Shown one piece after another: positions 8,520-63,990 of a stretch of DNA of 64,000 bases. Position 1 is the first letter of the stretch. Every line of letters starts with the position of its first letter. The notes below the pieces were generated by a model that saw only the letters and a list, made by a program, of their open reading frames with translations, was not told the origin of the DNA and searched no databases. This DNA is from Escherichia phage HildyBeyeler, in sequence record MZ501074; one strand, given 5' to 3'. The position numbers were made by a program, and so were the translations under genes.

Positions 8520-10853
8520 ATGAGCCATCGCATTGAAAAGGTAATTAAACGTGACGGTACTGTAGAAGACTTTGCTCCTGAAAAACTCAATGGTTGGGCA
8601 GAGTATGGTTGCAAAACAGTTGATGTAAGTTGGTCTGCCATTACTATGGCTGCTCAAAAAACTCTGCCTAAAGGGGTTGTAGATTCCGACACTCTGATGG
8701 ATGCGTTAATTAAAGCTGCTGAAAGTCTTATCAAAGATAATCCAGCATACGACGTGCCAGCAAAGGAATTACGTCTTGCGCAGATGCGTAAACGCCTTTA
8801 TGATTCCTTTGAACCACCTTCTCTACGCTTCTTCCACGATCATATGGTTAGTGTAGGTGCATGGGAAGACATGAGTGCATGGATTACCGATGAGCAATTT
8901 GAAGCTCTGAATCAGGTTATCGACCATGATCGTGACCGTCTTTTCACTAGTGGAGGACTGAAACAATTCTTTGATAAGTATTCCCGTCGTAACATAGCCA
9001 CCGGTGAAATTTATGAAACCCCGCAGTTTGCCTACATGGGTATGGCAATGGCGATGCTATCTCAACCTAACTGGACAATTCTCGATGCAATCGACCTATA
9101 CAACGCAATGTCACTCCACAAAATCAACGTTCCTACGCCGCCACTGGTTGGTCTGCGCTCTAGTGATCGTGGATTTGCTAGTTGTTGCCTCGTTGATTCC
9201 ACTGACACATTGGATTCAATCGACACAGCCGAGCACATCGTTTTTAAAATGGTCGCAGCCAGAGCGGGAATCGGGTATCATCTTGAAAGCAGATCAATTG
9301 CTGATCCGGTGCGAAATGGGGCATTCCCGCATTCCGGAAAACTGCCATATTATCGACACATTGACCGCTCAGTAAAGGCCAACACTCAGCAAACTCGTGG
9401 TGGTTCTGCTACAGTGTCTTATCCATACTTTGATCCTGAAATCATTCAGTTGATGCAGGTTAAGCAACAACGTGCTACAGACGAGAATAAAATCGATAAG
9501 ATGGATTATTCTCTGAGCTTCAACAATCTTTTGTTAAAACGTTATCTTAAAAATGAAGATATTACGCTAATGTCATACTTCTATGCTCCGGAAGTTCATG
9601 AAGCGTTTTATAGTGATGACGAGGCTAAATTTGAAGAAATCTATGTGGCAGCGGAGAAACGTGTGGCATCTCTTACAAAGATCGACCACGAAGGAAAAAC
9701 AGTTCCAGCAGCTCCTAAAGTCTCTGCAAAAGAAATCCTAGATACTTGGCTGCGTATCCGAATGGAAACAGGACGTATGTATGCCCACCACATTGGGGAA
9801 TCTAATCGTCACGGTAACTTCCTTGATCCGATCCGTATGACAAACCTTTGTGTTGAAATTACTCAGCCTACACGCCCGTTCCATCATATCACGGAACTGT
9901 ATAAAACGAAAGAGCAGCTTGACCAAATGAAGCCGGAGGATATTGGGGAAGTATCTCTATGTAACTTAGGTGGTGTTGTACTAGGACGCATGGAATCTCT
10001 AGCTGAGTGGGAAAAAACTTGCTACATCCTCCTGAAATTCGTTGATACAATTATTGAAATTCAGGATTATCCGTTCCCAACTATGGAATATACGGCTAAG
10101 AAACGTCGTAATGTTGGTATTGGCCTGATGAACGCAGCAGGTGCAATGGCAGCAGAAGGTCTGGCTTATGAAGGTATTGAAGCCCGTAACTGGATTCACC
10201 GTGAGGCTGAAAAACTGTCTTACTTCCTGCATAAAGCCTCTGTACGCCTAGCTAAAGAACAGGGTGCATGTGAGTGGTTTGATCGTACTAAACCATCTAA
10301 AGGAATTCTGGTAATCGACACATACAAGAAAACTGTTGATGAGCTGGTATCCGTAGGTCTAGAAATGGATTGGGAATCTCTGCGTGCAGATATTCTGAAA
10401 TACGGTATGCGTAACTCTGTTCTGACTGCGCAGATGCCTGGAGAAAGTTCCTCTGTACTATTGGGTGTTACCAACTCAATTGAGCCACCTCGTAGGATTG
10501 TATCTATCAAGGGTAGTGCAGTGAATAAAGTAATTGCAATTGCTCCGGGTGCAACTGATTGGGATACTCTCATGAGCTATAAACTGGCCTATGATATTGA
10601 TCGCACTGAGTGGATCAAATGGAACGCCGTTTACCAAAAATTCTTGAGCCAGTCATCAAGTTTCCAGATGTATTATGATTACTCTAAATTCGAGAATGAA
10701 ATCATTCCTGGCCCAGTAGTAGTTCGTGACTTTATGACTGCGGTTAAGTATGGTATAAAGACCTGGTATTATGCTAACTTTAACACTGCGAATGGTGGAG
10801 GAGCTGGTGAAGAGGCGGCAACAGGTTGTGCATCAGGCGGTTGTCAGTTATAA
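8520..10853 (+). CDS. nrdA: ribonucleotide reductase large subunit (class Ia)
   Basis: ATP-cone KRDGTVEDF, NLCVEI active-site loop, C-terminal CASGGC tail; ATG 8520 has AAGGAAA RBS (track start 8415). Confidence 0.9.
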   Translation: MSHRIEKVIKRDGTVEDFAPEKLNGWAEYGCKTVDVSWSAITMAAQKTLPKGVVDSDTLMDALIKAAESLIKDNPAYDVPAKELRLAQMRKRLYDSFEPPSLRFFHDHMVSVGAWEDMSAWITDEQFEALNQVIDHDRDRLFTSGGLKQFFDKYSRRNIATGEIYETPQFAYMGMAMAMLSQPNWTILDAIDLYNAMSLHKINVPTPPLVGLRSSDRGFASCCLVDSTDTLDSIDTAEHIVFKMVAARAGIGYHLESRSIADPVRNGAFPHSGKLPYYRHIDRSVKANTQQTRGGSATVSYPYFDPEIIQLMQVKQQRATDENKIDKMDYSLSFNNLLLKRYLKNEDITLMSYFYAPEVHEAFYSDDEAKFEEIYVAAEKRVASLTKIDHEGKTVPAAPKVSAKEILDTWLRIRMETGRMYAHHIGESNRHGNFLDPIRMTNLCVEITQPTRPFHHITELYKTKEQLDQMKPEDIGEVSLCNLGGVVLGRMESLAEWEKTCYILLKFVDTIIEIQDYPFPTMEYTAKKRRNVGIGLMNAAGAMAAEGLAYEGIEARNWIHREAEKLSYFLHKASVRLAKEQGACEWFDRTKPSKGILVIDTYKKTVDELVSVGLEMDWESLRADILKYGMRNSVLTAQMPGESSSVLLGVTNSIEPPRRIVSIKGSAVNKVIAIAPGATDWDTLMSYKLAYDIDRTEWIKWNAVYQKFLSQSSSFQMYYDYSKFENEIIPGPVVVRDFMTAVKYGIKTWYYANFNTANGGGAGEEAATGCASGGCQL

Positions 10854-49767: not shown

Positions 49768-50546
49768 ATCGGATTTGCACATATTCTAGGAAATTGATAA
49801 GTACAAAAATATTCATCGGATTTGCACATATTCTAGGGCAGTTTCTCTCAAACGTTACACATACTAGGCGGTTAATATAGGGCGGTTATAGGGAGGGCGG
49901 TTATTTCTAGGAGACATTTTTTGAAAACACATTTCTGGATTTTACTGTCGGATTTGCACACTGCATTTCTAGAAATTTATGGTCGGATTTGCACAAACGC
50001 CTAAGTTTTTAGGAACATATAATCTCTTGAAAATGGCAGCATTATTTCGGGCCGAAGGCCCATGATTGCCTGAGTTTTTAGAGCCACAGGAATTTTCACT
50101 TGTCAAGCTATTTTGCCCCATTTTGCTAATAAAATTTTACTTTTTCTGCACCTATCTCAAATTTCCCCAAATTATCTCAACTCTTCCCCAAAACCCCGCA
50201 AATCAGGTGCTCCGCACCAATCCTGCGCCCACACCATTCTAGCCTCCCAAATTTCTCTCGCTCTCTCATCTTCTCCTCAAACCTATACAATCACACACCC
50301 TCTCATCGAAGTCACAAAAATTTCATCGGATTCGCACAAATAAACCCATGTCGGATTTGCACATATTCTAGCTAATTCCACAGGATTGATGCGCAGCATC
50401 GGATTGCTGGAGTTTTTGGGAAAATTCGTCGTCGGATTCGCACATCACAAAAGTTTTTAGGGTCGGATTTGCACACTACCAAAAATTGTCGGATTCGCAC
50501 ATACACGCCCGCACGTAACACCCGTGGAGCAATGTCGGATTTGCAC
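49768..50546 (+). repeat. ten direct copies of 13-bp iteron TCGGATT(T/C)GCACA
   Basis: Copies start at 49768, 49815, 49947, 49982, 50325, 50350, 50431, 50462, 50488, 50534, all same orientation. Confidence 0.85.
49866..49902 (+). repeat. three direct copies of GGCGGTTA at 14-15 bp spacing
   Basis: Copies at 49866, 49880, 49895. Confidence 0.7.
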
Positions 50547-50575
50547 AAAAGCGCAGGGCAATTGCCCTGCGACTT

Positions 50576-50800
50576 TGAATGAGAATCATTATCATTTAAG
50601 AAGTGGAATGCAAATGATAATTATTCTCATTTAAGAAGTGGAATGATTCTCATTTAATAAGTGGAATGCAAATGATAATTATTCTCATTTAAGAAGTGGA
50701 ATGAGAACTATTCAAGAAGTGAAACGATTCTCATTAAAGAAGCGAAACGATTCTCATCCTAGAAAGGGAATGCAAATGATAATGATTCTCATTTAAAAAC
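50576..50800 (+). repeat. tandem array of about 24-bp units (GATTCTCATTTAAGAAGTGGAATG and variants)
   Basis: About eight degenerate contiguous units read directly. Confidence 0.8.
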
Positions 50801-50822
50801 GGAAGTGAGAAACACTGTTATT

Positions 50823-50936
50823 TAAGTTATCCACAGACTTATTAACAGCACGATTTGACTTGACAGAATCCTAGCCATTTTGAGGCGTTATCCACAGACT
50901 TATCCACAGCTTATTCTACTGTATAAATATACAGTA
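50823..50936 (+). promoter_or_regulatory. left inverted repeat with three perfect DnaA boxes and 20-bp palindrome
   Basis: TTATCCACA at 50827, 50888, 50900; TACTGTATAAATATACAGTA at 50917-50936. Confidence 0.8.
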
Positions 50937-51191
50937 TTCCTACGCAGTGAATAATTCTAATATAGGCCTAAAACGTCCTGAATCGCATTCTAGCGCGTTT
51001 TATTTTGGCGGGGATACTAAAACAAGGGCAAAACTGGAGGAGGCTTAGAAATTAGTTAGCTCGCTAACGATCACACAAGGCGACACGTAACACCCTAATC
51101 ATTAGCAGGCTAACCATCGCGGGCGCGGTCAAATGAGAATCATTCTCATTTGAGGATTGGGGGCACTTCCTGATAATTGCCCCCGTGATTA

Positions 51192-52552: not shown

Positions 52553-52741
52553 TTATTCTCCTTTACTATTCATGCAGCCCAGCAGATAAGAAAATACAGC
52601 GACACCCGCGCCAATAATAACCATAGGTTTAGTATTTGCTAAACTGCAATAAGAATCCTGAATACCATAAGCGGTGGCGAAAAGAGTCAAAATAGCGCCC
52701 AAGATACCTGCTAAAAAAGCCCGAAAAATAACCATTTTCAT
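52553..52741 (-). CDS. hypothetical two-helix membrane protein
   Basis: ORF track; two hydrophobic stretches. Confidence 0.4.
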   Translation of the reverse strand: MKMVIFRAFLAGILGAILTLFATAYGIQDSYCSLANTKPMVIIGAGVAVFSYLLGCMNSKGE

Positions 52742-52781
52742 TCTCCTAGTTAGTGGGGCGAAAGTAGCGCCCCGTTATTAC

Positions 52782-53130: not shown

Positions 53131-54123
53131 TTACTCGTTTTCGGTGTTAGTGGTAAAAGTAGAAATATCGATACCTTTTACCATTTCATCAATCATCTCA
53201 GCGATGTTAAAACTTTGCACCATTTCCAACATTGCCGCTTCCATAGCCGCTCCTGCTACCGCTTTCGCTTTCTGGTTATTCGGGGCGTACTGGTCAACCG
53301 CTACACTCAGCAGGTTAGCGATCACTACTCGACCGATCGGCGTATCAATATAGCCTTTAATCATAAATGGCGCTTTTTTAGCCGCTACTTTCGTGATTTG
53401 AGTTAGTGCAATTTTACCCGCTTCCAGTTTTGCAGCATTTACAACAGCGGATTTATTAGCGGCAACGATGTTAGCGATCTTAGTCATGGTATTTTTTCCT
53501 TTGTTTTCAGTGGTTTGAGTGTTAACGCTTTGAGTGTTAGAATTTACAGCATGTTTTTCTATATTGTCAATAGGCTGATCTTCATCTTTCCAGAAAGAAA
53601 AGCCCGCGCTTTCTATATCCCCATCGTATACGTATGGGTATACTTCCGACGGTAGCAAAAAATTGCCATCATCATCAAAGGCCATTACAGCCGCCAGACG
53701 ATACCCGTCACCGATTGACCGATTCCAGCCAACTGATAAATAACGCCAAAATGAATCAAGAAAGTTTTCAACGTCATAAAGATCCTTATCATAAGGCTCA
53801 TAATTTTCTATTGAAAAAACTTCTAAGCCCGCCCCAGCATCATAGGCTTTTACTGTGCTACCTTTTACGATTATGAAATCAGTGTCCGGCCCCCTACTAG
53901 TAAGCAGGTGATTATCCCTATTATATAAGATAATAGTTGCCCCTTGCTTATATAATGGTAGAAAACTACTCATATCATAGGCGTCGAAATCATCAAAAAA
54001 ATTCTGGTGAATATCTTCGGCCTTGTTAACAAAGTGCTTAATGCTGGTTGTTCTGCTACCGTCCAGCAGGTTGCGCAGCGCACCTTTTAAGACGGTTGCG
54101 TTATCTGGTTTATATAGCCTCAT
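53131..54123 (-). CDS. hypothetical two-domain protein (330 aa)
   Basis: ORF track; acidic N-terminal domain, N/T/Q-rich linker, A/K-rich C-terminal domain; no motif recognised. Confidence 0.55.
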   Translation of the reverse strand: MRLYKPDNATVLKGALRNLLDGSRTTSIKHFVNKAEDIHQNFFDDFDAYDMSSFLPLYKQGATIILYNRDNHLLTSRGPDTDFIIVKGSTVKAYDAGAGLEVFSIENYEPYDKDLYDVENFLDSFWRYLSVGWNRSIGDGYRLAAVMAFDDDGNFLLPSEVYPYVYDGDIESAGFSFWKDEDQPIDNIEKHAVNSNTQSVNTQTTENKGKNTMTKIANIVAANKSAVVNAAKLEAGKIALTQITKVAAKKAPFMIKGYIDTPIGRVVIANLLSVAVDQYAPNNQKAKAVAGAAMEAAMLEMVQSFNIAEMIDEMVKGIDISTFTTNTENE

Positions 54124-54389: not shown

Positions 54390-54497
54390 CTGTATATTTA
54401 TACAGTAGGATAACCTGTGGATAAGTCTGTGGATAAGCCCTTATATCGCCGCCTATTGTGTCAAATCATTTTGTGCTGTGATTAAGTCTGTGGATAA
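54390..54497 (-). promoter_or_regulatory. right inverted repeat with three DnaA boxes (reverse orientation) and palindrome
   Basis: TGTGGATAA at 54416, 54428, 54489; CTGTATATTTATACAG at 54390-54405; mirrors 50823-50936. Confidence 0.8.
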
Positions 54498-54538
54498 CTT
54501 AAATGATAGTTTTTCTCACTTAGGCCGATAGTTTCTTA

Positions 54539-56835: not shown

Positions 56836-58506
56836 ATGGTTATTTCCGCAGAAAAACAAACCCAGATCCTCAACCTTGCCGCTGATTTCAATTTCTATGG
56901 TAAACGTCTGCGCGCTACTAAGCTGGAAGTTTGTGACGATATTTCAAAAGCTGTTTATGATACGCCGAAACATTCCACCGCTATTTGTGACTGGTTGGAA
57001 GCAAATAAACCAGCGAAACCGAAAGCGGCGAAAGTAGCAAAAGCCATAAAAAACGATGACCGCCCTGAAGCCGCTGGAGTTATTTCTAGCACGGTGGAGC
57101 AATGGGAAGTAAAACAAGGCAAACGCTTTATCATTACATCGATTCAGAATAATACTTTCCCGCATAAAAACTTTTTGGCCGCGCTTGAACAATATGCCCA
57201 ATTTATTGGAGCTGATTTGCTGGTTAGCAAGTATATTTATAATAAAAACGGTTTTCAAAATGGGGAAGGGGCAGACGGAATCAAATATGATTCTGCATTT
57301 GACAAATATATTTGCAGCAAAAACGTGTTTTTAAATAACCGCCGCTTTGCTTTCATGGCTGAAATTAATGTTTTGCCAACCGCAGATTATCCGCTATCTG
57401 GATTTGCTGAAACTGCAACCGCGCTTAATCTGGAAGGTCTGGCAATTGGTCACGCTAAAATCACCGCCGAAAGCGTGCCAGCTTTAAAAGGTGAAGTAGT
57501 GCGCCGCATGTATTCAACCGGAACGGCAACGCTAAAAAATTACATTCAGCAGAAGGCAGGGCAAAAAGCGGAAGCGTTACATAATTTTGGTGCGCTGATT
57601 GTCGAGTTCGACGAGGACGGAGAATTTTTTGTTCGCCAGCTTGAAACGATGGACGAAAGCGGCGTTTTTTACGATTTGAATATTTGCGCCACTCCCACCG
57701 GATGCTATGAAACAACGGGGCACGTTTTAGGTTTACAGTATGGTGACATCCACGCTGAAAAATTAGATGAAGAGTGCGCCGCTGCATCATGGGGGCATGG
57801 TGATACCTATGGGCTTGTGGATATTCTCAAACCAAAATATCAATTCGTCCATGACGTGCATGATTTTACATCACGCAACCATCACAACCGCGCCTCCGGT
57901 GTATTCCTAGCAAAACAGTACGCCGCCGGACGTGATAAGGTTCTGGATGATCTTATCGATACGGGGCGCGTACTGGAAGCAATGGAGCGTGATTTCTCTC
58001 AAACAATCATTGTTGAATCGAATCACGATCTGGCGTTATCCCGCTGGCTTGATGATCGTAATGCTAACATTAAAGACGACCCAGCAAACGCGGAACTATA
58101 TCACCGCCTGAATGCCGCGATTTACGGAGCTATCGCAGAAAAAGACGAAACCTTCAACGTGCTTGATTATGCGTTGCGCAAGGTTGCAGGTTGCGAGTTT
58201 AACGCCATTTTCCTAACGACTGACCAATCTTTCAAGATTGCAGGCATTGAATGCGGCGTACACGGTCACAATGGCATTAACGGGAGTCGTGGCAATCCTA
58301 AACAGTTTAAGAAATTGGGCAAATTAAACACGGGGCATACTCATACGGCAAGCATTTACGGCGGTGTATATACCGCTGGCGTTGCTGGTAGTCTGGACAT
58401 GGGTTACAACGTTGGCGCGTCAAGCTGGACGCAAACGCATATTATTACCTATGTAAACGGTCAGCGCACTTTGATTGACTTTAAGAATGGTAAATTTTTC
58501 GCATAA
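56836..58506 (+). CDS. A1: A1-like pre-early protein, metallophosphoesterase-type nuclease
   Basis: 556 aa; GDIH, ESNHD and GVHGHNG phosphoesterase motifs; size and context recalled to match T5 A1. Confidence 0.5.
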   Translation: MVISAEKQTQILNLAADFNFYGKRLRATKLEVCDDISKAVYDTPKHSTAICDWLEANKPAKPKAAKVAKAIKNDDRPEAAGVISSTVEQWEVKQGKRFIITSIQNNTFPHKNFLAALEQYAQFIGADLLVSKYIYNKNGFQNGEGADGIKYDSAFDKYICSKNVFLNNRRFAFMAEINVLPTADYPLSGFAETATALNLEGLAIGHAKITAESVPALKGEVVRRMYSTGTATLKNYIQQKAGQKAEALHNFGALIVEFDEDGEFFVRQLETMDESGVFYDLNICATPTGCYETTGHVLGLQYGDIHAEKLDEECAAASWGHGDTYGLVDILKPKYQFVHDVHDFTSRNHHNRASGVFLAKQYAAGRDKVLDDLIDTGRVLEAMERDFSQTIIVESNHDLALSRWLDDRNANIKDDPANAELYHRLNAAIYGAIAEKDETFNVLDYALRKVAGCEFNAIFLTTDQSFKIAGIECGVHGHNGINGSRGNPKQFKKLGKLNTGHTHTASIYGGVYTAGVAGSLDMGYNVGASSWTQTHIITYVNGQRTLIDFKNGKFFA

Positions 58507-59320: not shown

Positions 59321-60097
59321 ATGCTGGATAAACTAAATCCCTTTAATGGAGAACGTAACAAAATGAATCAAGTTAAAACGAATATTACCCGTAATTTCCC
59401 GCATGTTTCCCGCGTCATGATCTGGGATCTGGATGGCACTATCGTTAACTCATTCCATCGCGTAGCGCCTTGCTTTGATAGTGATGGTAATCTAGATCTG
59501 AATAAGTATAAAAATGAAGCGTGCAAACATGATTTAATAATGCAAGATACTTTATTGCCGCTTGTTACATATATGCGCCAATGCATGAATGACGCAAATA
59601 CTTTAAACATTATTTGTACCGCTCGACTGATGAGCAAGTCGGACTATTATTATTTGCGCAAACAAGGCTTGCGAGGGCGTGGGAATAGCAATATCCGTGT
59701 ATTTTCCCGCGATACACTGCATAAGTATTTTGAAGCTGATAAAGTTAGCGAAATATACCACAGTAAGGACGCAGTTTATAAAAGCCACTACTTTGAGTTA
59801 TTTAAGCAGTTATATCCGAACGCTGATTTCACGATGATAGACGATCATAAAGGTGTGCTAGCAGCGGCGGCATCATACGGATTTAAAACGTTGGACGCGC
59901 AAGCCGTTAACGATATTCTATCAATCGGTGTTACATTGATAGGCGAAACCTTTATCGACGAATCTCTTGAGGATGATAATGATTATCAGTTCCTAGTCGA
60001 TCGCTTGCAATTATGTTGGGAAAGTATGACCGAGGAAGAACGCGCAGAATATAGTTGCAGCCCGCAACAATATATCGAGAAACTAAAAGTTGCATAG
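59321..60097 (+). CDS. dmp: HAD-superfamily 5-prime deoxyribonucleotidase-like protein
   Basis: MIWDLDGTIVNS HAD motif I; 258 aa; pre-early context. Confidence 0.55.
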   Translation: MLDKLNPFNGERNKMNQVKTNITRNFPHVSRVMIWDLDGTIVNSFHRVAPCFDSDGNLDLNKYKNEACKHDLIMQDTLLPLVTYMRQCMNDANTLNIICTARLMSKSDYYYLRKQGLRGRGNSNIRVFSRDTLHKYFEADKVSEIYHSKDAVYKSHYFELFKQLYPNADFTMIDDHKGVLAAAASYGFKTLDAQAVNDILSIGVTLIGETFIDESLEDDNDYQFLVDRLQLCWESMTEEERAEYSCSPQQYIEKLKVA

Positions 60098-60103
60098 TAA
60101 TTA

Positions 60104-60140
60104 AAGTTGATATTGTTTCACCTTGCAATTAAAATGGTTG
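60104..60140. terminator. bidirectional terminator, perfect 14-bp hairpin
   Basis: GTTTCACCTTGCAA-TTAAAATGG-TTGCAAGGTGAAAC between convergent genes. Confidence 0.7.
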
Positions 60141-60272
60141 CAAGGTGAAACAGTTAGCATGATAATAGTAACGGGGGTGGCGGTTAGCAGACTAAGTATT
60201 TTCGCCCAGCCCACTGCACCCACCCACGCGTACGTAATCCAAAGAATTTGGCAAAAGTCATTTTAGCGCTAA

Positions 60273-60812
60273 TTACCTGTTTAATTGGGCAACGTCTGGT
60301 ATACTTCCTTTGAACATCTCCTGTATTGCAAAGTCACCATGAAATGTCCTTCTTAGTAAATTTGCATAATTTACGGCATCTTCTAATTCGCTATAGGGAA
60401 AGTACTTAGTAGTGCCCCTTATCAGCCCCTGTTTATCGTGTAATCTTACCATCCACTTCTGAAGTTCTTTATGCCATGTAACATTTAGATAGCCTGATGA
60501 TGCTCTTGAGATTCTGCCATTATGATTATTCTCTGTAATTGAAGCCTCTCTTAAATTTGACCATCTATTATTTAGTTTATTCCTATCTATGTGGTCTACA
60601 CATTCCTCTGGCCATCTATTCTCCATAATAACAAAAGCTACTTGATGTGCATAAGCTTTAAACCCTCGATACTTGAGCTGCCTATATCCCCTATTTAAAG
60701 TACCTGCTTCTTTACCCTTACGATTGCCGCTTTTCCAGGTAAAAACTCCAGTTTCGGGGTCATAAGCAAATACTTCTTGTATTTCCTGTATATTTAGATT
60801 ATTCTTCACCAT
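60273..60812 (-). CDS. HNH homing endonuclease
   Basis: HQVAFVIMENRWPEECVDHIDRN...NRWSNLREAS HNH signature. Confidence 0.65.
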   Translation of the reverse strand: MVKNNLNIQEIQEVFAYDPETGVFTWKSGNRKGKEAGTLNRGYRQLKYRGFKAYAHQVAFVIMENRWPEECVDHIDRNKLNNRWSNLREASITENNHNGRISRASSGYLNVTWHKELQKWMVRLHDKQGLIRGTTKYFPYSELEDAVNYANLLRRTFHGDFAIQEMFKGSIPDVAQLNR

Positions 60813-62202: not shown

Positions 62203-63990
62203 ATGGGTTTTTTCGCTGGAAAATATAGTGATGGTAAAACTGTATTATCACTAAACAAGGTGAATGGGGGGGATATTAATGCTCACAAAACTCCTAACGC
62301 CAATACTATATTTCATTCTGACATGCCATTTGTTCTAGTTGAGAGTACGTATGAGAGTGCGTTAAGTAGTGCTGGTAATGGGTTCTTTGTATGTCAAATG
62401 CCTTCTGATATAGCTAATTTAAAGAGCAACGACCCTGGTAGAGTTATACTAACCGCTGTTGAGATAAACGGTACACATAGAGCTTTTCTTAATGGTACTC
62501 AATCCCAGGTTGGGCAGTTCTCAGCATTTTTCGAGGATTTTGCTAGTGGTAGGGCTGGTGCTGAATTATCTGTAACATCTGCTTTTGCGATCGGTGATAG
62601 TTTAGCACACGGTACTTATACTTATAACTCTGGTTTAGGCCATGAGGAATCTATTGCTCGACAAGGTTCTGGGGGCAGTTTACTACAGGCCTCTGGGTTC
62701 CTGATCTATAGACCTGGTGGTGTTTCTGCTGGTGAAGCCATTTCCAGAGCCTGGAATCTTATGGGTTTTCCAGCGGGTGTCTCTACTGTTCCTTTAGATA
62801 GTAATCACGCAGATTATTGGGAGCCTAACTGGCAGGCACCTATTGGGTCTGCTGGTAGAGGTCACAATTGGTTTTATGTTTGTAACTCCAATATTCGTGG
62901 CTTTGCAGGTAAGAAAGGTGTATTACCAAATAACGTAAACGTTATTTATAAATCCCCCGCATACCCAGAAAAAATCTATGTTTGTAGAGGTTCTACCTCT
63001 AACTTAGCGAATCAAAGTGCTAAAAAAATGATTGTACAAGATAATTTTAATGTAACTCCAACTAAGGTTATTTGGTACGTATTGAATCTTAAGTACTCTA
63101 ATGGGGGTATGAGTGTTGCTAGTAATCCCTTTACTGGATCCGATATTCATATAAGTCCATCTAACTTTACTATAAAAGGTGTTAGTCTTCCAAACACTAG
63201 CTACAAATTCATTAATCAGAATGCTTTTGGTAATTTAGCGTCTAGACCTGATATGGAGTATGTTGGTAATAACGCTGCGTATACCGGAGTTTTTGGTGAT
63301 AATACTGCAAGATGTGAAATTGTAGGTTCTAATAAAGGCTCTTTATGGTCTCCAGTAGATTATGGTGGTTCTAAGTCTCAGATAAGTATTTACAAATTCT
63401 CTGCTGGTAAGCAATGGTATGTTAATTCCAACAATAATACTATAGGTAATGAGCATGGAGTTGTTTGGGGACCCTCTTCAGTACCTTTACGATTACTACC
63501 AAATAACGTAGCCAGTACTTATATAGGTGATGACATAAACCCTTCTTACCCGGGTACAGGTAACAAGTATGTAGCCTTATCCACAGTAAGTCTTGGACTA
63601 CCAAATGCAAACTCTACAGTAATCCTAACTACTGAAGTAGTTGCTGGAAATCTTAATACTGCTGGAATGCCTGTGCGTACTTACAGTGGTAGCGCTTGGC
63701 AGGTACAAGGTAGACGTAAACAAAGTTACACAGCTGGTGATGGCATATTCCATCAAATATTAACTTTACCACCCAACCATCTAGTACCATTCCATACTAC
63801 AGCTTCCTATAGCTATGCACAAACTCAGGCTAGTAGGCCTGATGATTTAACATTTACTAGAAATGGGTTTATTTATACTATTAAAAATTTGGGTAACGGT
63901 AACGTTGAGTTGGGTGTAGTTATACATGCTGCGGAAGCGGCAGCTGTTTTCTTACCAAGACTACGTGTAACAGTTCAACGCCTTACCTAA
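62203..63990 (+). CDS. receptor-binding tail protein candidate (pb5/Oad-like)
   Basis: 595 aa Gly/Asn/Ser-rich protein adjacent and divergent to llp-like gene; AGGAG RBS; no sequence motif recognised. Confidence 0.4.
   Translation: MGFFAGKYSDGKTVLSLNKVNGGDINAHKTPNANTIFHSDMPFVLVESTYESALSSAGNGFFVCQMPSDIANLKSNDPGRVILTAVEINGTHRAFLNGTQSQVGQFSAFFEDFASGRAGAELSVTSAFAIGDSLAHGTYTYNSGLGHEESIARQGSGGSLLQASGFLIYRPGGVSAGEAISRAWNLMGFPAGVSTVPLDSNHADYWEPNWQAPIGSAGRGHNWFYVCNSNIRGFAGKKGVLPNNVNVIYKSPAYPEKIYVCRGSTSNLANQSAKKMIVQDNFNVTPTKVIWYVLNLKYSNGGMSVASNPFTGSDIHISPSNFTIKGVSLPNTSYKFINQNAFGNLASRPDMEYVGNNAAYTGVFGDNTARCEIVGSNKGSLWSPVDYGGSKSQISIYKFSAGKQWYVNSNNNTIGNEHGVVWGPSSVPLRLLPNNVASTYIGDDINPSYPGTGNKYVALSTVSLGLPNANSTVILTTEVVAGNLNTAGMPVRTYSGSAWQVQGRRKQSYTAGDGIFHQILTLPPNHLVPFHTTASYSYAQTQASRPDDLTFTRNGFIYTIKNLGNGNVELGVVIHAAEAAAVFLPRLRVTVQRLT

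Follow-up and report, generated by a model that had tools for sequence, protein, structure and literature searches.

What purpose do the short tandem repeats next to the DnaA boxes of a T5-like phage serve? The question is raised here by positions 50576-50800 of a 64,000-nucleotide stretch of Escherichia phage HildyBeyeler (record MZ501074; one strand, 5' to 3'), which was analysed whole and is called the window; coordinates refer to it unless another sequence is named. In phage T5 the same question has a long history, since the cause of the DNA stop after 8% entry has been unexplained since the 1960s, and the repeats at the stop point have been catalogued repeatedly. A preliminary description of the window had reported about eight degenerate 24-bp repeats at this locus and suggested a second family of binding sites, distinct from the 13-bp repeats nearby. 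Our analysis points to operators of the host regulator Fur. We put at roughly 0.6 the probability that the array is a high-affinity cluster of host Fur operators in the injection-stop region, with host Fur as the ligand in vivo. That purified Fur would bind these boxes in vitro seems very probable from their sequence.

The region 50576-50807 consists of eight contiguous units of 23 bp, three of them stretched to 35 bp by a 12-bp insert, and so the number of repeats first reported is right while their length of 24 bp is not. The 23-bp unit has the composition ATTCTCATT-TAAGAAGTGG-AATG, and its core TTAAGAAGTGGAATG starts at 50596, 50631, 50654, 50689, 50712, 50735, 50758 and 50793, with 0-5 mismatches. 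The 35-bp units are those starting at 50596, 50654 and 50758; their insert, CAAATGATAAT plus one base, completes 19-bp palindromes at 50613, 50671 and 50775. Tandem Repeats Finder, which the preliminary description had proposed as a check, returned nested periods of 23, 35, 58 and 104 bp across 50578-50811 (scores 86-276), and a repeat-family search found a 31-nt unit in seven copies and an 85-nt unit in four. Twelve inverted-repeat pairs were also counted. An array of clustered regularly interspaced short palindromic repeats (CRISPR) was ruled out, as it had been from the start, the units being contiguous and degenerate with no unique spacers.

The degenerate palindrome AATGAKAATNATTMTCATT occurs in five exact copies, all inside 50578-51150. 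When up to 3 mismatches are allowed, it has 8 matches in the window versus 0.34 expected, and none of 100 shuffles reached 8; therefore, the palindrome family is beyond chance. The five 19-bp copies have the consensus AATGAKAATnATTMTCATT. Palindrome 1 (AATGAGAATCATTATCATT, 50578-50596) opens the array, and palindromes 2 and 3, both AATGATAATTATTCTCATT, follow at 50613-50631 and 50671-50689. Palindrome 4 (AATGATAATGATTCTCATT) is at 50775-50793, its end 33 bp from the first DnaA box. Palindrome 5 (AATGAGAATCATTCTCATT, 51132-51150) stands apart from the array, beyond the DnaA-box inverted repeat and about 225 bp past the last DnaA box. It is the core of the perfect 21-bp palindrome at 51131-51151 that had already been noticed there. 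There are also incomplete copies: a half-site scan found a truncated site, AATG-ATTCTCATT, at 50642-50654 that has the right half-site only, two similar right halves (ATTCTCA, at 50727 and 50750) and one left half (AATGAGAAC, at 50700). The box spacings of 35, 58 and 104 bp follow no consistent helical phase, and helical phasing of the boxes was discarded for that reason. The functional unit is probably the 19-bp palindrome, with its half-sites and 6-bp-offset sites, rather than the tandem unit of 23 or 24 bp.

We infer that the five palindromes are Fur boxes, each of the form AATGA(G/T)AATnATT(C/A)TCATT, which corresponds to a 7-1-7 Fur box. The 7-1-7 consensus TGATAATnATTATCA, with up to two mismatches, has 8 matches in the window versus 0.87 expected, and five of these are the palindromes, with 1-2 mismatches (one in palindrome 1). 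The strict 19-mer Fur consensus GATAATGATAATCATTATC, with up to three mismatches, has no match in the array and a single one in the window, inside dmp. It misses the array because the boxes sit in the 6-bp-shifted, 7-1-7 register, and for this reason matrices were used instead of consensus counting.

A position weight matrix (PWM) was derived solely from the self-complementary 19-mers in the arrays of 30 distinct T5-like phages and applied to E. coli K-12 sequence, 175 kb and an independent 80 kb (255 kb together), in which 12 known Fur-regulated intergenic regions occupy 1.09% of the bases. In the 175 kb the highest matches were at ryhB (28.0 bits), fecI (23.1) and fhuA (18.5), with fepD-entS, fepB-entC, fecA and fepA-fes as further top matches. 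In the independent 80 kb they were at exbB, the oppA upstream region and cirA; Chen et al. 2007 (PMC2189734) had obtained a gel shift with the oppA upstream site. Seven of the top 10 non-overlapping matches (P=2e-12) and 12 of the top 20 (P=3e-19) fell in Fur-regulated intergenic regions, versus a mean of 0.56 in 10 for column-permuted palindromic matrices. The phage PWM also gave matches of 12-15 bits in other E. coli intergenic regions, at L060 44581 (map-rpsB), L061 48740, L065 16111 and L066 19067 (dps-rhtA), which may be weak real Fur sites or false positives.

The reciprocal test used a host PWM, for which the Fur site set was rebuilt from the E. coli K-12 genome with one site, picked by literature consensus, from each of 12 Fur promoters. 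Under this matrix the five palindromes score 25.7 bits (palindromes 1 and 4), 25.3 bits (2 and 3) and 23.8 bits (5) and are the best five positions in 64 kb, whereas in leave-one-out scoring all E. coli sites remained below them, with a maximum of 22.8 bits (ryhB). The phage and host frequency matrices are correlated with r=0.93, a value reached by none of 2000 column permutations. Seven positions in the window reach 16 bits or more; all of them belong to the terminal repeat, and the ~54 kb outside it have none. Fur clusters typically contain sites that overlap at offsets of 3 or 6 bp (Chen et al. 2007, PMC2189734), and boxes 2, 3 and 4 each have a weaker secondary site 6 bp upstream (50607-50625 and 50665-50683, 13.6 bits each; 50769-50787, 10.2 bits); the truncated site scores 9.5 bits at 50636.

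The bases that Fur reads are also conserved. According to Deng et al. 2015 (PMC4506495), Fur contacts guanine through Arg57 and thymines through Tyr56; AT-rich DNA with a narrow minor groove is a further mark of its sites. In the phage sites G4 and C16 are near-invariant, along with the thymines read directly by Fur, and the sites are consistent with such AT-rich DNA. Thus, the boxes are like enterobacterial Fur operators in their 19-bp, 7-1-7 motif, conserved G/C and T, 6-bp overlaps and clustering. They are unlike them in being nearer to the consensus than every host site tested, in their tandem spacing beside DnaA boxes, and in lying off-promoter, between convergent transcription units, in a virulent phage. 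The second family of binding sites first suggested for this locus is therefore supported as a separate, conserved motif which, by the reciprocal matrices, is equivalent to the Fur operator.

When compared with phage records, the region matched 608, of which 261 over at least 80% of its length, and the best-scoring 30 of the 608 were all T5-like; identity was 82-87% to many T5-like phages of Escherichia, Salmonella and Citrobacter. It aligns with T5 (AY587007) 9425-9690 at a mean column identity of 85%, the array itself corresponding to 9468-9650. In the T5 annotation, the homologous stretch comprises copies 1-4 of direct repeat C together with palindromes E-I. Next to it lie palindrome J, with the 7.9% nick, and copies of direct repeat D (DRD) on one side, and inverted repeats C' and D' (IRC' and IRD') with DnaA boxes on the other. 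The array in the window likewise belongs to the untranslated part of the long terminal repeat and has the same flanking order, DRD/J and IRC'-IRD'. By this homology the window comes from a T5-like virulent phage, and its array is homologous to direct repeat C with palindromes E-I in T5.

This part of T5, 'Repeat Region 3', is the candidate injection stop signal (iss), where the first-step transfer halts, and the shear point of the first-step transfer was estimated at ~9618 (Davison 2020). That point falls inside the T5 array, within palindrome I. Moreover, the T5 matches to the Fur PWM are palindromes E (9473-9491, 20.0 bits), G (9577-9595, 25.7 bits) and I (9612-9630, 20.0 bits). The array in the window thus has the same position and homologous sequence as the region treated by Heusterspreute 1987, Wang 2005 and Davison 2020, and differs from it by one extra 35-bp unit and by the box at 51132, both of which T5 lacks. 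In the literature the function of the T5 repeat region was called "impossible to guess" in the 2020 analysis, the region was said to be short of experimental studies in a 2023 paper on BF23, and it was described merely as repeat- and palindrome-rich in a 2026 preprint. No link of Fur or iron to the T5 repeats or the injection stop signal was found in the searchable literature, a scope that leaves aside older subscription papers, and the sole co-occurrence of phage and Fur in that search was the sit operon on lambdoid phages. Therefore, while the repeats themselves were already annotated in T5, their identity as Fur operators in a non-promoter, DNA-end context appears new to the searchable literature.

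A1 served as an unbiased anchor for gathering relatives. In all 29 distinct enterobacterial T5-like loci, whose A1 identity ranges from 65 to 98%, the stretch from the last DRD copy to the first DnaA box contains three or more boxes that reach 16 bits, and the counterpart of the extra box at 51132, past the DnaA boxes, was present in most relatives. The copy-number comparison called for in the preliminary description showed variable numbers of units and variable box sequences, the array measuring 227-362 bp. The stretch between the last box and the first DnaA box is almost invariant among 30 phages, ending in the linker ...GGAAGTGAGAAACACTGTTATTTAAG-TTATCCACA. Three boxes with that same linker behind them are present in a Klebsiella relative (A1 74% identical), and Pectobacterium My1 (L039; A1 65%) has six positions of at least 16 bits in the array, corresponding to about five distinct boxes. 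The more distant Aeromonas phage AhSzq-1 (A1 33%) has six matches, scoring 16-24 bits, none of which is a tandem copy of another; four lie amid DnaA boxes at 4.5-5.6 kb. In Vibrio phage D254 one box occupies the position equivalent to 51132 (L068 7003), after the DnaA pair and a CTGTATA...TACAG palindrome.

The motif is also found outside T5-like phages. An exact pair pattern, with 10-40 bp between its two consensus boxes, was present in only 12 stretches of 596 Gb of bacterial and archaeal genomes. In seven of the 10 cellular cases examined the pair lies ~30 bp upstream of genes for TonB-dependent receptors, which are classic Fur targets. The viral collection IMG/VR gave 29 stretches, and two composition-matched permuted palindrome patterns used as controls had no match each. 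About 20 of the 29 viral stretches carry no T5 hallmark and are non-coding arrays in which 2 to ~16 exact consensus boxes repeat in tandem, with periods of ~29-49 bp; examples among the IMG/VR loci L073-L100 are L079 1810-1900, L081 10759-11322, L095 270-463, L076 255-362 and L089 6851-6956. Terminase genes lie within ~2.5 kb of the array in six unrelated contigs (L078, L080, L086, L093, L091 and L081), HNH endonucleases adjoin two arrays (L076 and L083), and a replication module adjoins one (L095). Many of the viral arrays are near contig ends, which may be genome termini or assembly breaks at repeats. An identical box pair with its flanks occurs in Ruminiclostridium hungatei (L112 6358-6434) and in a 70.9-kb viral contig (L087 4008-4084), presumably as a prophage; the presence of the pair in a Clostridia genome indicates that it is not restricted to phages of Proteobacteria.

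The same 19-mer is therefore shared by unrelated phages and bacterial iron-uptake promoters, which argues for a conserved host ligand over a lineage-specific phage protein. The strongest competing explanation is nevertheless of the latter kind, namely that the palindromes are sites of a phage-encoded protein, A2 or a virion or terminase protein, and merely resemble Fur boxes. A2 is annotated as a DNA-binding protein in relatives, is needed together with A1 for the second-step transfer (Davison 2020), and is conserved, at 36% identity, even in the Aeromonas relative that has boxes. The confinement of all seven strong window matches to the terminal repeat is also what would be expected of a dedicated phage cis-site. 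However, such a protein would not be expected to prefer a motif that outscores all natural E. coli sites under a matrix derived from the host, nor to share its exact 19-mer with contigs lacking any T5 hallmark and with the upstream regions of TonB-receptor genes. In A2 no DNA-binding family was recognised by Pfam and no solved relative by a PDB sequence search. Moreover, the first-step arrest of T5 requires no phage protein synthesis. We consider this explanation unlikely, although it is the one that fares best after Fur.

A second alternative, the classical one, dispenses with any sequence-specific protein and invokes DNA structure: the repeats and palindromes would form cruciforms or slipped structures that physically stall the DNA in the tail or the envelope. 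The array does have strong self-complementarity, since as single-strand DNA it folds at -35.2 kcal/mol versus -18.6 +/- 3.1 for shuffles (z=-5.4). This, the twelve inverted-repeat pairs and the mapping of the stop point to the array speak for such a role. However, any set of similar palindromic protein sites yields this kind of fold signal, and the palindromes are short (19-21 bp), AT-rich and located in linear, non-supercoiled DNA. Structure also leaves unexplained both the column-by-column agreement with Fur and the retention of Fur-scoring boxes amid diverging spacers. In addition, T5 exposed to purified FhuA in vitro ejects its entire genome, which counts against an arrest by the DNA itself. 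A purely structural role is thus improbable.

Even less can be said for the array as a Fur 'sponge'. In this view the hundreds of array copies present after replication of the phage DNA would titrate Fur, and the phage would profit from the resulting derepression of iron uptake. Multicopy Fur boxes do derepress the regulon, as the Fur titration assay shows (see Chen et al. 2007, PMC2189734), other phage contigs have arrays of 4-16 boxes, and the pair pattern is found in more stretches of the viral collection than of the far larger cellular one. Against this, T5 destroys the host DNA within minutes, which makes derepression of the host useless to the phage, and titration would require neither the concentration of the boxes on the first-step DNA nor their fixed location next to the DnaA boxes. 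We regard this as very improbable.

The last alternative treats the array as an accessory of a plasmid-like replication origin or partition site, with the DnaA boxes and the 13-bp 'iterons'. Plasmid origins such as P1 oriR, F oriS and RK2 oriV do combine iterons with DnaA boxes, and the locus shares with them an AT-rich, untranslated cluster of direct repeats (including 11 copies of the 13-bp repeat) beside DnaA boxes. The likeness is superficial and the framing of the locus as an origin, implied by the preliminary description, is not supported: no initiator or partition gene is adjacent, and no such Pfam family occurs in ten neighbouring open reading frames (ORFs); a PLSDB plasmid similarity search with the region had no match; the repeat motif is of the type of a host-regulator operator and not a Rep iteron; and T5 origins were mapped near the genome centre, with the replication genes off the first-step DNA (Davison 2020), so that this role can be set aside as the least credible of all.

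We return to the reading of the array as a cluster of host Fur operators and consider how it might work. The 12-bp inserts bring in further hexamers of the GATAAT type, from which the overlapping, 6-bp-offset sites arise, and units of 23 bp that have no insert supply half-sites. Fur is abundant, with thousands of molecules in each cell, and strong sites are where its polymerisation starts. In an iron-replete cell, soon after entry of the DNA, Fe2+-Fur dimers would occupy the four boxes of the array and the fifth box past the DnaA boxes, and Fur may oligomerise across the half-sites. Fur and DnaA on their neighbouring boxes would then form a complex of host proteins at the inner end of the terminal repeat. 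This site is on the DNA that enters last during the first-step transfer, and the boundary of the terminal repeat, which falls in the DRD repeats, is ~0.5 kb from it.

Such a complex could act in one of two ways. It might arrest or hold the first-step DNA, a role suggested because the stop occurs at the array and without phage protein synthesis. Alternatively, it might aid the recognition of the terminal-repeat boundary for packaging, by analogy with IHF at lambda cosB, which is suggested by the boundary lying only ~0.5 kb away and by the arrays beside terminase genes in six unrelated contigs. In lambda the IHF site I1 lies in cosB. The likeness is one of functional analogy only, a site for an abundant host protein among repeats near a terminus or packaging signal; the host protein is IHF there and putatively Fur here, where the link to terminase and packaging is by analogy only. 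A DNA-end transaction of either kind, hold or arrest on the one hand and boundary recognition or packaging on the other, is the most likely role, and gene regulation is unlikely. Indeed, a conventional repressor-operator role was rejected, as promoter-like sites are not enriched at the array: a promoter and terminator scan gave 6 versus 5.5 expected, none convincingly placed. Any single downstream role must be taken as tentative, the odds being against each one individually.

Several points weigh against Fur as the ligand. The case for it is drawn from sequence, and the tandem duplication of units can amplify a chance resemblance. The promoter overlap expected of a Fur operator is absent; the boxes lie off-promoter between convergent transcription units, a context in which the usual Fur repression is inapplicable and the benefit to the phage is left unexplained. 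Iron starvation, under which the T5 receptor FhuA reaches its highest abundance, is the condition of lowest Fur activity, and one infecting genome provides too few sites for Fur titration. The copy number of the boxes varies among relatives, and the fifth box is missing from T5 itself. Proteus phage 1 keeps the architecture with weak boxes only, Vibrio phage Chester has no strong box, and 14 of the 17 distant environmental contigs encoding A1 (33-49% identity) are without a box of at least 16 bits; the feature is therefore not universal in the family. Lastly, the strong single-strand self-complementarity of the array leaves room for a structural role.

If host Fur is the ligand, the stop region would offer a simple experimental handle, as its boxes would be consensus operators of a well-studied, purifiable and genetically dispensable host protein. 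Iron physiology would then be tied to infection by phages that use iron-transport receptors, and if the arrays in unrelated phages hold up, the use of Fur by phages would be wider. More speculatively, Fur, and hence iron status, could be a cofactor for the handling of phage DNA ends, with a Fur-DnaA complex acting in two-step delivery or packaging and with Fur-operator arrays recurring in unrelated phages, often beside terminase genes; this broader picture is possible but doubtful. A class of phage cis-elements of this kind, recruiting host factors, has not been described in the searchable literature.

The elements flanking the array agree with those of T5. On the DRD side it is bounded by a GC-rich hairpin, CGCAGGGCAATTGCCCTGCG, at 50552-50571 on the minus strand, followed by a T-run and terminator-like, to which palindrome J and the 7.9% nick site correspond in T5; a GCGC is present at 50551-50554. 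Beyond the hairpin, the nearest copy of the 13-bp repeat TCGGATTTGCACA, the T5 direct repeat D, is at 50535-50547 (plus strand), and its 11 copies span 49.7-50.55 kb. On the other side a conserved linker, AGTGAGAAACACTGTTATT (50804-50822, plus strand), which is itself weakly Fur-like (11.2 bits), leads from the array to the DnaA boxes, and it also adjoins the DnaA boxes in the Proteus and Klebsiella relatives. The DnaA-box cluster, outside the array at 50827-50908 (plus strand), has TTATCCACA at 50827, 50888 and 50900 and the variant TTATTAACA at 50839; it is the equivalent of the T5 IRC'-spacer-IRD'. The genes on either side of the array region are convergent. Downstream come A1 (56836-58506), A2 and dmp, the side on which T5 has them in its terminal repeat. 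An Rfam search of 49.0-52.0 kb (E<=1) gave no match. In a Pfam scan of ten neighbouring pre-early ORFs, including A2, DUF7566 was the only family, with no Rep/Par or Fur-like family; it was found in a 330-aa pre-early protein (53131-54123, minus strand; E=4e-112), the nine other ORFs being without a Pfam family.

The inner boundary of the terminal repeat would be near 50085, judging by homology to T5. At the other end, past the end of dmp, where the T5 genome ends, the window continues directly into other genes (60097-60300), including one on the minus strand at 60273-60812 and a 595-aa ORF at 62203. Because of this continuation, the source record is probably an assembly in which the two terminal repeats were collapsed or one that is circularly permuted.

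Other Fur-like sites were observed in the window. A perfect 7-1-7 Fur-type box, TGATAATGATTATCA, is found at 59972-59990 (21.5 bits) inside dmp (59321-60097, plus strand), which encodes a deoxyribonucleotidase, and there it codes for DDNDYQ. It is in the same place in nearly all relatives, including a Klebsiella phage (L070 12856) and T5 (231-249). A site at 52724-52742 (18.8 bits) overlaps the start codon of a minus-strand ORF (52553-52741), and another at 54502-54520 (15.3 bits) abuts a second DnaA-box cluster (~54416-54497), the counterpart of the T5 IRC-spacer-IRD.

Further repeats were noticed near the array. Three close copies of GGGCGGTTA(T) are at 49868-49908, just outside the terminal repeat, and also at T5 ~10330-10370. 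A direct repeat containing CACGTAACACCC is present at 50500-50523 and 51072-51095, ~50-70 bp upstream of Fur boxes 1 and 5, and in Vibrio phage D254 (L068, ~6990) CACGTAACCC likewise stands before the Fur-like box.

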